The translations under genes and the position numbers were made by a program. Below the pieces are notes generated by a model that did no database searches, had not been told where the DNA came from, and saw nothing but the letters and a program-made list of their open reading frames with translations. Below, in pieces: positions 20,483 through 39,459 of a stretch of 64,000 nucleotides of DNA (position 1 is the stretch's first letter; each line of letters begins with the position of its first letter). The stretch lies in the NCBI GenBank assembly GCA_000182565.2, contig KQ257462.1, one strand, 5' to 3'. The stretch is from Spizellomyces punctatus DAOM BR117. Its lineage: Eukaryota.

Positions 20483-22969
20483 ATGGCGACAGCCGATAAC
20501 CACGACCCAGCTTTGCGGAGAAGAAACTATGTGAAAGACGCTTCTACCTCACGTGGAATGGCCCGCGGCAGCCGAGAGTCGGGAATGGACGCAAAGCTCC
20601 GTTCTAGAGAGGAAGGACAGGGAGGTACAAGCCGGAAGCGGCCGTGGGAGAAGACAGTGGAAAGCGAGGTTGATACTGCGAGCTTAGACCTTCGGGAGCC
20701 AAAAGCGAGAAAAAAGAAGCGTGGGGGGAAGCATGCGAAGGAGAAGGAGTTGAAATGGAAAATTGCCCATGGACTTGTCGACGCTGATAATCAAAACGTG
20801 GAAGCGGTAAACCAGGGAGCGGTGGCCACTTTGTCAGGGGCCTTCCATCCACACAACTCTGACAACAATGTGAACACTGCTTTGGATGATGGGGTAGCAG
20901 CTAGCGGTGGCCTATCTGATGCAACCACTAGCTTTTCGACACAAGTCAAACGATCCAAACCTTCGAAGACAGCTGGACTACCTGCTTGGATTTCTAACCC
21001 CCTTACCATCCCGGCCCAAATAACGAAGTCATCAGAAAGCGACGTTGCCGATATCCGTTGGGGGCTTTCCCCAAGAATTCTAGCCCGGCTCCGCGAAAAA
21101 GATATCTCCCACCTATTCCCTGTACAGATGGCTGTCCTCCCTCGCTTGCTCAAAACTCGCCATTCATCAGCATCCATTCCTCCCGGGGATATCTGTGTTT
21201 CAGCGCCAACCGGGTCGGGAAAGACGCTGGCGTATGCCCTCCCTATTGTGGAGGCACTTCTTGATCGCATAATTCCACGTCTTCGTGCGCTCGTAGTCCT
21301 TCCAACCCGAGATCTTGCGGCGCAAGTTAAGGCCACATTTGATATGCTTCTTCGCGGAAGCGACTTACGGGCTCTGCTTATCACAGGGCAAACTCCTTTC
21401 GCCTTAGAACAGCAGCAGCTTGTAGCCAGTGAAGCCTGGGAGGTGGCAACAGAGGAACATGGCTCAGGCAAAGTGGATATCGTAGTTGCAACGCCAGGGA
21501 GGCTGATGGATCACTTGCGAGGAACAAAAGGATTCACATTACGGCATCTGAGATATCTGGTGATCGATGAAGCCGATAGGCTTCTCAATCAGAGCTATCA
21601 GGATTGGTTGACCCATGTCCTTGCGGCAGCCGTAGCCCAGCCAGAGAGGAACCTTGCGGATGGGATAGTGTCCGAATTCGGTGAGGCGACTTCAGCTACG
21701 TGTGAACCTCAACTCGATGAAAATGAATTCCTTTTACATAAGACTGCTACTTGGCGTCGGTCTCAGATTGTTGACGGCAAGGTCTCAGCTGCTCATTCCT
21801 CTATTCCTTCCGTGCATCACTACACTCCTCTCCAAAAATTACTTTTTTCCGCCACTTTAACGCGGAATCCAGCCAAGATCGCATCTCTCAATTTGTATGA
21901 TCCTGTTTATATTGCCGTGGCTCCAGCAGGTTCAGCCTCAACCGATTTACAGCAGGAAACCGTTGTTGAGCGATTGACTACTGATGCACGCTTCGTTGCT
22001 CCGCATACATTGAGTGAACGAATGATAGTGTGCACTTCCGCGGGCGAAAAACCACTAATGCTATTACACCTGCTCTGCAATCTCGGACTGACCGGTGCGT
22101 TAGTTTTTACCAAGTCCGTTGAAGCAGCGCATCGGCTGGCAGCATTGCTCCAGCTTTTTTCCTCGTCCTACGAGATGCCTGAAAGCAGTAGCGAGGATGA
22201 GAGCACTGAAGGAGGTGCCGTAAAAGAAGCTAAATCCGCGAGCACAATTGCTCAAGCCTTTTCATCCGATCTTCCGCCTTCTGAAAGAAAGCGTCTTCTA
22301 TCCTCCTTCAGGGATGGAAAGCTCACCGCACTAATTTGTTCAGATGTGATGGCTCGCGGAATGGATTTGGGCGAAAGTGTCAAAGCCGTCGTCAACTACG
22401 ATGTACCGACGCGCGTAAAGACGTACGTTCATCGAATCGGTCGTACCGCTCGAGCCGGGCGCGTGGGAGTCGCTTACACCATCTTGGAGGATAGAGAAGT
22501 AAGATGGTTTAAGGGAGAGATGGCAAAAGTTGAACGCTCTGGAAGTGAGAAAGTCGAGAAGTTAAAAGTAGTCTCGGATGACGTGGAAGGCCTTACCGCG
22601 CCATATCAAAAGGCCTTGGCGGAACTTGGAGGTCTGGTGAAAGGAAACCATGTGGAGAATGAACATCCAGGAGGGTCATCTGATTCTGAATCTGACTCAA
22701 GTGATAACGAGTCAGATACCAGTGCAGACGAGATTAGTGGGGAGGATACCGTAGATAGTGGCAGTGAAGAAAGTGAAGAGGAGAGTGGATCTCCTCAAGG
22801 TAGGGGAACGGACGACACGACGGAACACTCAATGATAAATATGGACCGAGAAGTGTCCGTTTCTGACTCCCGTCTGCTGCATGAAAACACTGGCCGGTTG
22901 GAGGCAGCCTTGAAGTCGGCAGCCGAATTCGTCAGCTCGTCTGGTGGGACATTGAATTGGTGGTCATAG
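20483..22969 (+). CDS. DBP6: DEAD-box RNA helicase Dbp6/DDX51, intronless
   Basis: LFPVQMAV, GDICVSAPTGSGKT, PTRDLA, TPGRL, DEADRLLNQSYQDW, LQKLLFSATLTRNP, ARGMD, HRIGRTARAG. Confidence 0.92.
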   Translation: MATADNHDPALRRRNYVKDASTSRGMARGSRESGMDAKLRSREEGQGGTSRKRPWEKTVESEVDTASLDLREPKARKKKRGGKHAKEKELKWKIAHGLVDADNQNVEAVNQGAVATLSGAFHPHNSDNNVNTALDDGVAASGGLSDATTSFSTQVKRSKPSKTAGLPAWISNPLTIPAQITKSSESDVADIRWGLSPRILARLREKDISHLFPVQMAVLPRLLKTRHSSASIPPGDICVSAPTGSGKTLAYALPIVEALLDRIIPRLRALVVLPTRDLAAQVKATFDMLLRGSDLRALLITGQTPFALEQQQLVASEAWEVATEEHGSGKVDIVVATPGRLMDHLRGTKGFTLRHLRYLVIDEADRLLNQSYQDWLTHVLAAAVAQPERNLADGIVSEFGEATSATCEPQLDENEFLLHKTATWRRSQIVDGKVSAAHSSIPSVHHYTPLQKLLFSATLTRNPAKIASLNLYDPVYIAVAPAGSASTDLQQETVVERLTTDARFVAPHTLSERMIVCTSAGEKPLMLLHLLCNLGLTGALVFTKSVEAAHRLAALLQLFSSSYEMPESSSEDESTEGGAVKEAKSASTIAQAFSSDLPPSERKRLLSSFRDGKLTALICSDVMARGMDLGESVKAVVNYDVPTRVKTYVHRIGRTARAGRVGVAYTILEDREVRWFKGEMAKVERSGSEKVEKLKVVSDDVEGLTAPYQKALAELGGLVKGNHVENEHPGGSSDSESDSSDNESDTSADEISGEDTVDSGSEESEEESGSPQGRGTDDTTEHSMINMDREVSVSDSRLLHENTGRLEAALKSAAEFVSSSGGTLNWWS

Positions 22970-37074: not shown

Positions 37075-38184
37075 TGGCGACGTGGCATACTTTTTCCCGT
37101 CCCAAATATATCAAAGATCTCCGCCCTGGTAATGAAGTTATCAGCACGAACCACGGACAAAAAGGATGTCCGAGAACGGACGCGTCGTCCAGTTCTGCGT
37201 CCAGTTGCTCCTGCACCAACGCGACTTTCTTCTTTCAGATCTACATGCCACCAATCTTAACTCTCAAATTGAAAGACCGAGCCTTTCCAACGCTGGGAAT
37301 GAATTCACCGATTACGAGCTCTTGATGGCTGGTTTCAATATGCTCAAGATTGTGGTGAAGATTGGCATGGTTATTTCGTCTGTTGACGACTTTCAGTCAG
37401 ACAAGTTCACTTAAAATGATGACCTGGGAGGGAAACGATAAAACTGAAGATTACTTTCGGTTTTGGTGCATATTGACAGCTGTGGCGGTTATGGAAGACG
37501 CCGAGTGGGTCATTCTACTTAAAATTGAAAGCACGAGGACCAAGCCTACGGTATACGCAGACTTGATGGCTATGAACGGTCTTTGCCTCACAGCCATCCA
37601 AAATGATTGAGTCTAGTATGGAGAGGGTGCATGATATTACGAATCTGGATGAAGTCTGTCTCACATTGGAGACCAACAAATGGCCGATAGAGCCATTCTT
37701 TCCTTCAAGCCTTGATCGCTTGACACTCTCGCTGCCTGACGACCTTGCAATGTGGAATTTTCTAAACTGAGTGACCACAGAAATCCGCACTCGGCGAATT
37801 GATTCTCGTTAAAGGGATCTGCATGGTGATTCTCTAAGCTACAGGCACCTCCATCCAGTTTTATAATTCGTGGCGATACAGCCGCTACCGCTAAATCGCG
37901 AACGCCCTCCTAGACTTTCCTCTATACATGCAATACTGATATCTTCATTGATTATAGTTATTAGTGCCCTTCAAAAGTAGCAAAGGGGGAGAGATAGCTA
38001 CAGGCGTAAATTACCTTTGGATATCCAGCAGCAGATGGCTACAGCAACCGGGATGTGACTAAGCACTGCGCCACGCCTATGTTGGGGGCAGCGACAAAAC
38101 TCGTCTATCGACCATTACGGTAGTTCCTTCTCTTGAACCACCCGCCATCTCCTCGATCGTCCATCCCGGAGCAGCGAATTCATC

Positions 38185-39459
38185 ATGGTATGTATCCATC
38201 CATCCATCCATCTTCACACCATTCGGCATCCCCGAGATGGTCTCCAATACGGAAGACAGTTTTTCGGTGGACCGTTGAATTGGTTGTTGCCCAGCTAGCA
38301 TGTGTCAACATGCAATGCCGGACGCAACATGGGCCCTTTTAGGAGACCTTGTCCTAGTGACAAACTCCAATGACTTTAGGAGCTTCTCCCTCTTGAGGGA
38401 GACTCTGATGACCCAGATTTGGCCCAACTAACGGTTTGCCGTGCTCTTCTCCCTGTGATCGCCATTTTAGCCCAAAGCCGTCGGCAAGTCCAAGAAGCCC
38501 GCTCCCGCTCCTTACCCTGCCAAGGGTCAGGCCGTTGCTAAAAAGGCCAAGAACCCTTTGATTGAGAAGCGTTCCAGGAACTTTGCTATCGGTACGCTTT
38601 TGGTTTTTGGGAGAATGCCTTTTCGAGGGCAATTGTGGTTGACTATTGGTGCATGTGTAGGCCAGGACATTCAGCCCAAGCGTGACCTTAGCCGTTTCGT
38701 CAAGTGGCCCCAGTACGTGCGCCTTCAGCGCCAAAAGGCCATCCTCAAGCAGCGCTTGAAGGTTCCCCCAGCGATCAACCAGTTCACCAAGACCTTGGAC
38801 AAGAACACTGGTGAGGATCCATGAGAAGCACCAGGGAAAACCCAACAGCAGTCGCTTACTTGTTTTTTCCAATGTTCAGCCACTCAGTTGTTCAAGCTCT
38901 TGAACAAGTACCGCCCTGAGTCCAAGCAGGAGAAGAAGACCCGTTTGACTACTGCTGCCGAGGCTGTTGCTGCTGGCAACAAGGTTGACCAAGGCAAGAA
39001 GCCCGTTGTCGTCAAGTACGGTATCAACCACATTACTGCTCTGGTTGAGGCCAAGAAGGCTCAGCTGGTTGTCATTGCTCACGATGTCGACCCCATTGAG
39101 GTGTGTGATATTGTTTTTGTCCAATTGGTGTGAGTTGTTGACATTGTTTGATTTTTTATTAGATTGTCATCTGGCTTCCTGCCCTTTGCCGCAAGATGGG
39201 TGTCCCATACTGCATTGTCAAGTCCAAGTCCCGGCTCGGTACTGTTGTCCACAAGAAGACCGCTACCGCTATTGCTTTGACCGAGGTGAAGCCCGAGGAC
39301 AAGCACGAGCTTGCTGCCCTTGTTGGTGCTGTCAAGACCAACTACAATGACAAATTCGAGGAGATCCGCAAGACCTGGGGTGGTGGTATCATGGGTCAAA
39401 AGTCTAACAACAAGACTGCGGCCAAGGAGGCCAAGGCCGCCAAGGAGATCCGGGTGTAA
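38185..39459 (+). CDS. RPL8: 60S ribosomal protein eL8 (L7a / yeast L8)
   Basis: Coding part of exon 1 is ATG only (38185-38187, then GTATGT); [48 protein letters not shown]; strong codon bias. Confidence 0.97.
38188..38470 (+). other. 283-nt structured first intron of RPL8
   Basis: GTATGT donor, ACTAAC branch point near 38427, TTTTAG acceptor; several perfect short hairpins and a (TCCA)n run. Confidence 0.75.

Follow-up and report, generated by a model that had tools for sequence, protein, structure and literature searches.

The eL8 gene of Spizellomyces punctatus DAOM BR117 raises the question of what its first intron is for. This intron directly follows a bare start codon and is 283 nucleotides (nt) long, against 69, 69, and 62 nt for introns 2-4. 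The gene lies in a 64,000-nt stretch of contig KQ257462.1 (assembly GCA_000182565.2), hereafter the window, in which positions 38185-39459 of the plus strand encode, in five exons, a 263-residue eL8 protein of the RPL7A type. A sequence-only reading of the window had proposed that intron 1 harbors an eL8-binding structured splicing switch, equipped with a cloverleaf RNA and a poison 3' splice site, or else a snoRNA-like RNA. Comparison with other fungi suggests a modified answer, which is favored tentatively and at somewhat less than an even chance: intron 1 may hold, at 38337-38374, a diverged copy of a conserved splicing-control hairpin. This explanation stands barely ahead of that of an ordinary long first intron. 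The idea of a splicing switch survives in this form, helped by the conserved hairpin found in the same intron elsewhere, by the recurrence of its core words and geometry at 38337-38374, and by the presence of unspliced intron-1 RNA, whereas the specific devices proposed for it fail.

The feature is a genuine eL8 first intron and it is canonically spliced. Exon 1 (38142-38187, plus strand, as for all features below unless stated) is a short 5' untranslated region (UTR) closing on the ATG at 38185-38187. Its contig pieces start at 38142 or 38158, reach 38183 and then pass into exon 2, and a loose end at 38142 bears an adapter. Intron 1 (38188-38470) is of phase 0, runs from GTATGT to TTTTAG and shows a canonical junction in RNA contigs; exon 2 (38471-38591) is delineated by contig pieces and by tblastn against relatives. 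The length of the intron and its place after a bare ATG, both remarked upon in the sequence-only reading, are confirmed by sequence and RNA contigs alike. A branch-site motif, ACTAAC, occupies 38427-38432 and places the branch A (38431) 39 nt before the 3' splice site; each of introns 2-4 displays a YTNAY motif 18-21 nt before its acceptor.

The RNA evidence stems from four public runs (X1, X3, X19, and X23) compared with positions 38000-38850. X23 contributes 24 raw reads, and the libraries were prepared without small-RNA selection; contigs lose rare forms and decay would mask a product of nonsense-mediated decay (NMD), a caveat on any negative result about splice forms. Contigs of X1 (record 1) and X19 (record 4, depth 95.7) contain the 38187/38471 junction. 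In X19, an unspliced contig (record 3, 38158-38499, depth 7.91) spans the whole intron, and unspliced intron-1 RNA amounts to ~8% of the spliced form in this one run. Introns 2 and 3 are at depth 0 in the same run, and intron 1 is the sole intron found unspliced. A window-identical contig of X3 (record 8) opens at 38302 and crosses the acceptor into exon 2; the last 169 nt of intron 1 are retained in it, and intron 2 has already been removed. About 2 of the 24 raw reads of X23 fall inside intron 1 (38232-38347, depth table). Accumulation of unspliced RNA, one mark of ribosomal protein (RP) autoregulation by splicing inhibition, is observed for intron 1 within single runs. Translation of the unspliced form yields ATG and 36 codons, then a stop. 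As a separate observation on X3, a root metatranscriptome, its sole window-identical contig has its first base at 38302, within intron 1, and the run yielded no contig of this organism in which exon 1 is spliced to exon 2. Assembly, strong retention, or an internal start may account for this.

The conserved element was recognized in eL8 genes of other fungi. A metagenome scan with the last eL8 exon returned 497 relatives, from which 80 loci were kept (84 in later counts); scans of genome and viral contigs with an eL8 exon gave nothing usable for the intron-1 question. The first hint came from a locus of the genome collection, L082, whose 249-nt first intron contains conserved-looking words. 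Many loci share a common layout in which ATG|GT is followed by a long intron and by an exon 2 opening with CC, and the first intron is 219-271 nt long after a bare ATG in 15 of the 16 loci measured. Of the sequences of the 84 loci, 28 distinct ones combine UAGAG and CUCAAUGA within 45 nt of AG|CC. An intron-1 hairpin that adjoins the 3' splice site and is flanked by these two invariant words is carried by at least 28 other fungal eL8 genes (L021, L028, L033, L034, L037, L039, L041, L044, L045, L048-L051, L053-L055, L057, L060, L061, L064, L070-L072, L075-L080, and L082, together with L038, L059, and L066).

According to RNAalifold and pair counts, the family hairpin possesses an invariant 3-bp outer stem (GAG/CUC), an asymmetric UUC/U internal loop (5' strand 3 nt, 3' strand 1 nt), and an inner stem of 5-8 pairs formed by a purine strand with the polypyrimidine tract. 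The branch-site word CUGAY lies in the hairpin loop in most members, and the hairpin is followed by AAUGA(Y) and then by the acceptor AG; in L050/L053 and in L051, the hairpin is found 20-38 nt away from the splice site. The inner stem is supported by covariation on 27 sequences, as judged against 500 shuffles, with a similar outcome on 25 sequences. Paired cells reach 91.0% (81.8 +/- 1.3 in shuffles), cells changed on both sides number 28 (9.0 +/- 2.3), and the covariation score is 0.276 (0.138 shuffled, slid controls at most 0.184). Each of these three values was reached by 0 of 500 shuffles. The three outer pairs never vary and are therefore silent on covariation either way. An upstream GGCU can moreover pair with AG|CC at the splice site in 13-14 of the 15 sequences of a 15-sequence alignment, a pairing that is unproven because it is invariant.

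A model of the hairpin and its two flanking words (R2) retrieved from 53 non-training loci six members and nothing else: L060 (52.6 bits), L053 (43.1), L038 (29.4), L059 (20.7), L066 (19.5), and L078 (13.6). With filters off, the divergent loci L038, L058, and L078 are seen to retain just UUAG, a helix, and CAAUGAY. Rfam does not contain the element: it gave 0 hits on 20 related loci and, on positions 2100-2700 of L082, only a chance SNORD14 match on the opposite strand. The helix followed by AAU-GA, opposite UUA, would correspond to the outline of the bulged strand of a kink-turn (K-turn), its partner strand being UA and not GA. The U4 5' stem-loop has an identical AAU-GA. The family hairpin may be the rpl7-l8-s3 candidate motif of Li and Breaker (2017), described there as a two-hairpin motif of fungal L7, L8, and S3 introns (PMC5640933). 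eL8 is absent from the main text of Gao et al. (2021), and a literature search found no paper on a K-turn in eL8 pre-mRNA and no eukaryotic circuit of eL8 feedback on its own pre-mRNA.

Two further observations concern these loci. In nine loci, the 5' half of the long first intron holds conserved words resembling two small hairpins (CUCG...CGAG and CGCA...UGCG), at positions 3231-3340 of L033 and in the same stretch of L028, L039, L043, L044, L051, L057, L061, and L072. The eukaryote-type, intron-bearing eL8 gene of L082 (2169-3303, ~47-54% G+C) is located in a 6.65-Mb record labelled as the chromosome of an actinobacterial metagenome-assembled genome, which suggests a mislabelled or chimeric assembly.

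The window intron shares with this family its position, as the first intron directly after the bare ATG of an eL8 gene. With filters off, R2 gave four matches in 128 kb, among which 38337-38374 ranks second (8.3 bits, E 6.3); scaled to the prechosen 283-nt intron, the E value is ~0.014, with a rough calibration. The alignment joins UUUUAG to CAAUGAC and skips the interior. This candidate copy reads UUUUA-(GGAG)-ACC-(UUGUC)-CUAGU-(GACAA)-A-(CUCC)-AAUGAC, paired strands being in brackets, and its words UUUUAGGAG and CUCCAAUGAC correspond to the family core with one extra G-C pair. It would form a 4-bp stem, an ACC/A internal loop of 3 nt/1 nt, and a 5-bp stem, where the family shows 3 bp, UUC/U, and 5-8 bp. 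The window carries exactly the pattern of the divergent members, UUAG, helix, and CAAUGAY. The family-like fold at 38337-38374 is +0.7 kcal/mol over the minimum free energy (MFE) structure and is identical to the left domain of the MFE fold of the 65-mer at 38342-38406 singled out in the sequence-only reading. A side observation concerns position 38339, where the X19 unspliced contig shows T>C, its single difference over 342 nt; the corresponding site varies within the hairpin family.

Folding predictions place this candidate in a succession of local structures. Domain I (38214-38284), defined by MFE helices, is a long predicted hairpin (z -2.84, 2/200 shuffles equal or better) without comparative support. 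Domain II (38285-38329) is a hairpin built of UGUUGC/GCAACA and GCAUGU/ACAUGC (z -2.78, helix probability 0.80-0.99), and it incorporates the GCATGT/ACATGC pairing put forward earlier. Domain III (38330-38426) is a multibranch structure closed by UGGGCC/GGCCCA (z -2.67, closing helix 0.81-0.96) and holds the 65-mer. The limits of the three domains were picked after folding, and the minus strand of one of them folds equally well (z -2.54). Inside domain III, the K-loop-like hairpin 2 (38365-38382; CUCC, loop AAUGACUUUA, GGAG; probability 0.83) competes locally; its pattern class has 6 copies in the 64 kb, both strands included, versus 1.0 in shuffles. Hairpin 3 (38385-38402; UCUCCCU-CUUG-AGGGAGA) has a probability of 0.83-0.95 and an energy of -9.7 kcal/mol.

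For the whole intron, the folding z is -2.66 (2/200 shuffles equal or better), and -2.42 in a separate run of 100 shuffles; z values of -2.66 or lower are also reached by 2 of 31 other 283-nt windows of the 64 kb. The 65-mer itself has a z of -2.15, with 5/200 shuffles equal or better. The predicted stability beyond chance thus appears modest: the expectation that the intron would fold better than shuffled controls holds at z -2.4 to -2.7, while genomic windows as extreme exist. The cloverleaf proposed at 38342-38406 does not fare as well. All of its words are in place (GGAG at 38342-45, CTCT at 38403-06, TTGTC/GACAA, CTCC/GGAG, and TCTCCCT/AGGGAGA), as are CTGATGA at 38405-11, GGTCTCC at 38239-45, TTTTAG at 38337-42, and GCATGT/ACATGC, but the fold is unfavored. 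The four-way junction has a predicted energy of -19.0 versus -22.5 kcal/mol for the MFE of the 65-mer, i.e., 3.5 kcal/mol above the best fold, and an ensemble probability of 0.0018 (~0.2%). In the pre-mRNA context, the pairing probability of its closing helix is ~0, and forcing the junction costs 4.7 kcal/mol. The alternative pairings GGTCTCC/GGAGACC and GCCCA/TGGGC are likewise disfavored, at costs of +11.5 and +7.7 kcal/mol, respectively. On the downstream side, 38461-38471 with 38537-38547, and 38332-38342 with 38538-38548, are each 10/11 complementary to the exon 2 word GCUAAAAAGGCC; as a candidate structure, the 3' splice site-exon 2 pairing (11 nt, 91%) was rejected, its predicted probability being at most 0.03.

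Repeated words in the intron offer alternative pairings. TTTAGGAG occurs twice, at 38338-45 and 38375-82, so that CUCC can pair upstream, in the family-like manner (probability 0.15), or downstream in hairpin 2 (0.83). CTTCTCCCT also occurs twice (38383-91 and 38446-54), with 3 copies in the 64 kb versus 0.59 expected; AGGGAGA hence has two possible partners, one closing hairpin 3 and the other in the polypyrimidine tract, 12 nt upstream of the acceptor. This tract, CUUCUCCCU followed by GUGA (38446-38458), is an exact 9-nt repeat of 38383-91. Positions 38448-58 and 38395-38402 (GA-GGGAGA) can be drawn as a canonical K-turn core, UCUCCC-UGU-GA, with a 6-bp canonical (C) stem, a UGU bulge, tandem GA, and a poor non-canonical (NC) stem. 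A second arrangement, at 38365-73, has a C stem, AAU, and GA, with a UA partner strand. For UGGGC, the choice is between GGCCCA (38421-26) and the G|CCCA that spans the acceptor (38470-74), the latter pairing costing +5.2 kcal/mol. Forcing the K-turn stem brings about the two other family-like pairings, for a total of +7.5 kcal/mol over the MFE. The repeats make by-eye mappings cheap, and these alternative pairings are therefore given little weight. Two such mappings were tried and rejected, the collinear one of 38375-38472 onto the family and the one treating the cloverleaf as the family's alternative pairing; neither has model support, and the repetition of GGAG, CUCC, and UUUAG means that mappings of this kind are easily found.

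The main competitor of a diverged hairpin copy is an ordinary long first intron, a real possibility at a little below even chance, in which a lineage-specific expansion of ~210 nt, forming hairpins like any RNA of similar size and base composition, would carry a chance resemblance of two words and the slow removal of a long intron would leave unspliced RNA behind. First introns are reported to be longer as a general feature of eukaryotes (PMC2518113). A series of results weighs on this side and against a family member in the window. R2 was built after the resemblance had been noticed and is thus not an unbiased test. Its match rests on two end words with a local skip, scores 8.3 bits where the weakest member reaches 13.6, has a window-wide E of 6.3, and is accompanied by three similar-scoring matches elsewhere in the window, two of which, read by eye, look like chance. 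With E <= 100 as the limit and filters off, an nhmmer search with a 15-sequence profile left 38330-38470 without a match; among its 20 weak matches, one covers the ATG and CCAT region on the minus strand (38173-38198, E 8). A model of the hairpin, acceptor, and exon start (R1) gave no window match at E <= 10 and 8 weak ones, none of them in intron 1, where no sense-strand score exceeds 3.0 bits. The window hairpin stops at 38374, leaves the branch site (38427-32) outside, and lies 97 nt from the acceptor (38470).

The relatives and the RNA point in the same direction. L010 and L014, the only 5'-complete loci with the same intron positions after residues 92 and 166 (tblastn), have first introns of 64 and 56 nt after a bare ATG, without a structured block, and these short introns argue for a lineage-specific expansion. 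The covariation comes from other fungi; the ~8% of unspliced RNA could be explained by slow removal of a long intron; and T>C at 38339, from one run, is the only intron-1 variant seen. In MFE folds, the distance between 5' splice site and branch site falls from 238 to 35 nt, a value equalled by the mean of 150 shuffles (35.4 +/- 12.5, 48% at least as short), and a fold that brings the two sites together beyond chance was accordingly rejected. K-turn cores occur at chance frequency: a core with a 6-bp stem is also present in 7.9% of 1000 shuffles and 5.7% of 210 genomic windows, a strict scan gave 2 arrangements versus 3.5 +/- 2.2 in shuffles, and the non-bulged strand of the hairpin motif is UA, the canonical one being GA. 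The modest folding z, the genomic windows as extreme, and the lack of an Rfam match fit an ordinary intron as well. Blastn of intron 1 against the window and the loci recovered the CCAT repeat only and no block copy, and therefore gave no sign of a repeated mobile element. What an ordinary intron leaves to coincidence is a conserved structured element at the same position, in introns of similar length, in at least 28 other fungal eL8 genes; the recurrence in the window of both flanking words, the closing G-C pair, and the 3/1 loop geometry; and the finding that no other intron is seen unspliced, intron 1 being retained even in a molecule from which intron 2 had already been removed.

The extra ~210 nt of intron 1 are predicted to fold into local hairpins, among them the candidate diverged copy at 38337-38374. 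In the other fungi, the hairpin pairs the polypyrimidine tract with the upstream purine strand, loops out the branch site, and ends in the invariant CUC-AAU-GA, a K-turn-like bulge adjoining the 3' splice site. In the mechanism that we infer, the window copy would be homologous to that element and its motif would be of K-turn nature. A kink-turn-binding protein, most simply surplus eL8, would bind the motif and stabilize a fold that slows intron-1 removal. The unspliced RNA stops after ATG and 36 codons and should therefore go to NMD, and its loss would produce negative feedback on eL8. A more ambitious version, rather unlikely as a whole, would have eL8 control itself through a K-turn-like intron motif and a fold blocking splicing, a system that ascomycete-type fungi would have in common with this lineage, where it would be rearranged. 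Binding would then lock the polypyrimidine tract and the 3' splice site into the splicing-blocking fold. In the window, such a switch might oppose hairpins 2 and 3 (on) to GGAG/CUCC, GGGAGA/UCUCCC, and UGGGC/GCCCA (off), the off state being 7.5 kcal/mol above the MFE, which would be within reach of a tight protein-RNA complex.

eL8 is a member of the L7Ae family of kink-turn binders, and the family hairpin, given its location and K-turn-like bulge, is a good candidate for splicing feedback by eL8 or another protein of that family. Binding of an RP to its own pre-mRNA is a classic feedback device, and the family hairpin would make the question directly testable for eL8, to which a possible rearranged copy in a more distant lineage would add. 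Should the window copy prove a chance look-alike, the intron would be an ordinary long first intron, and the value of the comparison would then reside in the hairpin family of the other loci.

Ribosomal protein gene introns often host snoRNAs, and it is conceivable, if improbable, that splicing of intron 1 releases a stable small RNA, for instance one of a non-canonical snoRNA-like or K-loop type. A box-C-like CTGATGA (38405-38411) is indeed present, and the loop of hairpin 2, AAU-GA...UA, is K-loop-like. A preprint describes mammalian K-loop RNAs that derive from introns and are bound by 15.5K (10.64898/2026.08.03.742641), and a two-hairpin motif is known from fungal L7, L8, and S3 introns (PMC5640933). 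The CTGATGA word stands alone: it comprises the intron's only TGATGA and only CTGA, which overlap, it also fits the branch consensus CTRAY, and it is preceded by C and not by R as in the C box RUGAUGA. No second C-like box within one mismatch exists on either strand of intron 1, no CTGA on its antisense strand, and no CUGA downstream of CTGATGA within the intron. Intron 1 therefore cannot be a canonical box C/D RNA, and of the earlier box-C proposal only the word itself survives, deprived of a D-box partner. A strict K-turn scan of the intron gave no arrangement involving CTGATGA, hence no C/D terminal-stem K-turn. The box criteria of mammalian K-loop RNAs (C box at most 7 nt from the 5' end, CUGA adjoining the 3' end) are not matched either, for want of a downstream CUGA. 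Also rejected was a reading in which CTGATGA serves as the D box of a snoRNA and this snoRNA is a homologue of the ascomycete element; the family CUGA coincides with the branch-site consensus, and L051 has it outside the hairpin.

Searches for other classes of RNA agree with this outcome. Domains I and II abut without a single-stranded hinge, and UUGGUUGU contains no ANANNA, as judged by reading and not by a dedicated H/ACA program; the ACA at 38327-29 sits inside a stem. Rfam gave 0 hits over the whole window at gathering thresholds, with no rRNA, and in permissive mode (E <= 10, 38100-38560) only sR10, at chance level (9.7 bits versus a gathering threshold of 45, E 7.2). ARAGORN predicted no tRNA-like gene in 37900-38700. 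Within intron 1, neither the starts nor the ends of reads pile up among the 24 examined, which come from libraries not made for small RNAs. With neither a box C/D pair, an H box, an Rfam match, nor a tRNA-like gene, the snoRNA-like RNA of the sequence-only reading loses its footing.

Lastly, the poison 3' splice site, in which an internal AG (38342, or its look-alikes at 38379 and 38416) would yield a frame-shifted or stopped mRNA destined for NMD, is very improbable: TTTAG|GAG does occur twice (38338-42 and 38375-79), ATG joined to 38343 correctly reads M-E-T-L-S-stop and thus ends after 5 codons, and unproductive splicing of eL8 genes in C. elegans (rpl-7a) and human is cited in a review (PMC8047918), but no junction from 38187 to 38343, 38380, or 38417 was found in the contigs or reads of the four runs, from which rare or decayed forms could escape and in which the canonical and unspliced forms were both assembled, no YTNAY motif lies within 125 nt upstream of 38342, compared with 18-21 nt in the other three introns, and the AG of the unused TTTTAG (38337-38342) is predicted to be buried in UUAGGA/UCCUAG (probability 0.46-0.69).

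Several side observations concern the surroundings of the eL8 start codon and the rest of the window. A (CCAT)n run occupies 38194-38212, immediately past the 5' splice site, and CCAT repeats within ~100 nt of the eL8 start codon are shared with four relatives, in the 5' UTR or in intron 1 (L002 18-67, L006 23-34, L010 43-54, and L014 146-155). The word CCATCCATCC has 4 copies in the window versus 0.17 expected. L002, the closest cDNA-like relative (74-77% identity), opens at positions 1-12 with GTCTCTCTAGAG, ~70 nt ahead of its ATG. The strand just before the family hairpin has the same words, whose presence in L002 could be due to chance or represent a leader version of the element. The best nhmmer match of the window to the 15-sequence family profile is found far from the gene, at 22237-22266 on the minus strand (E 0.15), where GATGAAAAGGCTTGAGCAAT resembles the C-like box and GGCUUGAGC of the ascomycete element.

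Among known systems, the closest is the intron-1 hairpin of the other fungal eL8 genes, with which the window shares the gene, the position after a bare ATG, and the intron length (219-271 versus 283 nt), as well as the flanks UUAG...CAAUGAC, the closing G-C pair, a short stem, the 3-nt/1-nt loop, and a second stem. In contrast, the window has the extra G-C pair and a short UUGUC/GACAA helix instead of the purine/pyrimidine stem, and its 8.3-bit candidate copy does not include the branch site and lies 97 nt from the 3' splice site. To our knowledge, the eL8 genes of S. cerevisiae have no intron. Yeast RPL30, RPL22B, RPS9, RPL7B, RPL18B, and RPS22B are reported to be autoregulated by splicing inhibition through intron structures (PMC12311795, PMC13232506, PMC4838235, PMC3315480). 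The window resembles the yeast genes in its RP host gene, structured intron, alternative pairings, detectable unspliced RNA, and early stop on retention; the window case is built on sequence and RNA contigs, and protein dependence in it is a proposal. With box C/D snoRNAs and mammalian K-loop RNAs, the window intron has in common an intronic location, one UGAUGA word, and GA-containing loops, and differs from them by the absence of a D-box partner, of a terminal box arrangement, and of an Rfam match. Archaeal L7Ae, of which eL8 is the eukaryotic homologue, is reported to control the mRNA that encodes it by binding a K-turn of the leader (PMC5539422, PMC6298567). Protein family, a K-turn-like proposed site, and negative feedback would be common to both; control is translational and located in the 5' leader in archaea, where the window proposal concerns splicing, and the window motif has UA for GA on its non-bulged strand and no clear NC helix. 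If true, eL8 control through the fungal intron would parallel, at the level of splicing, the leader K-turn of archaeal L7Ae.

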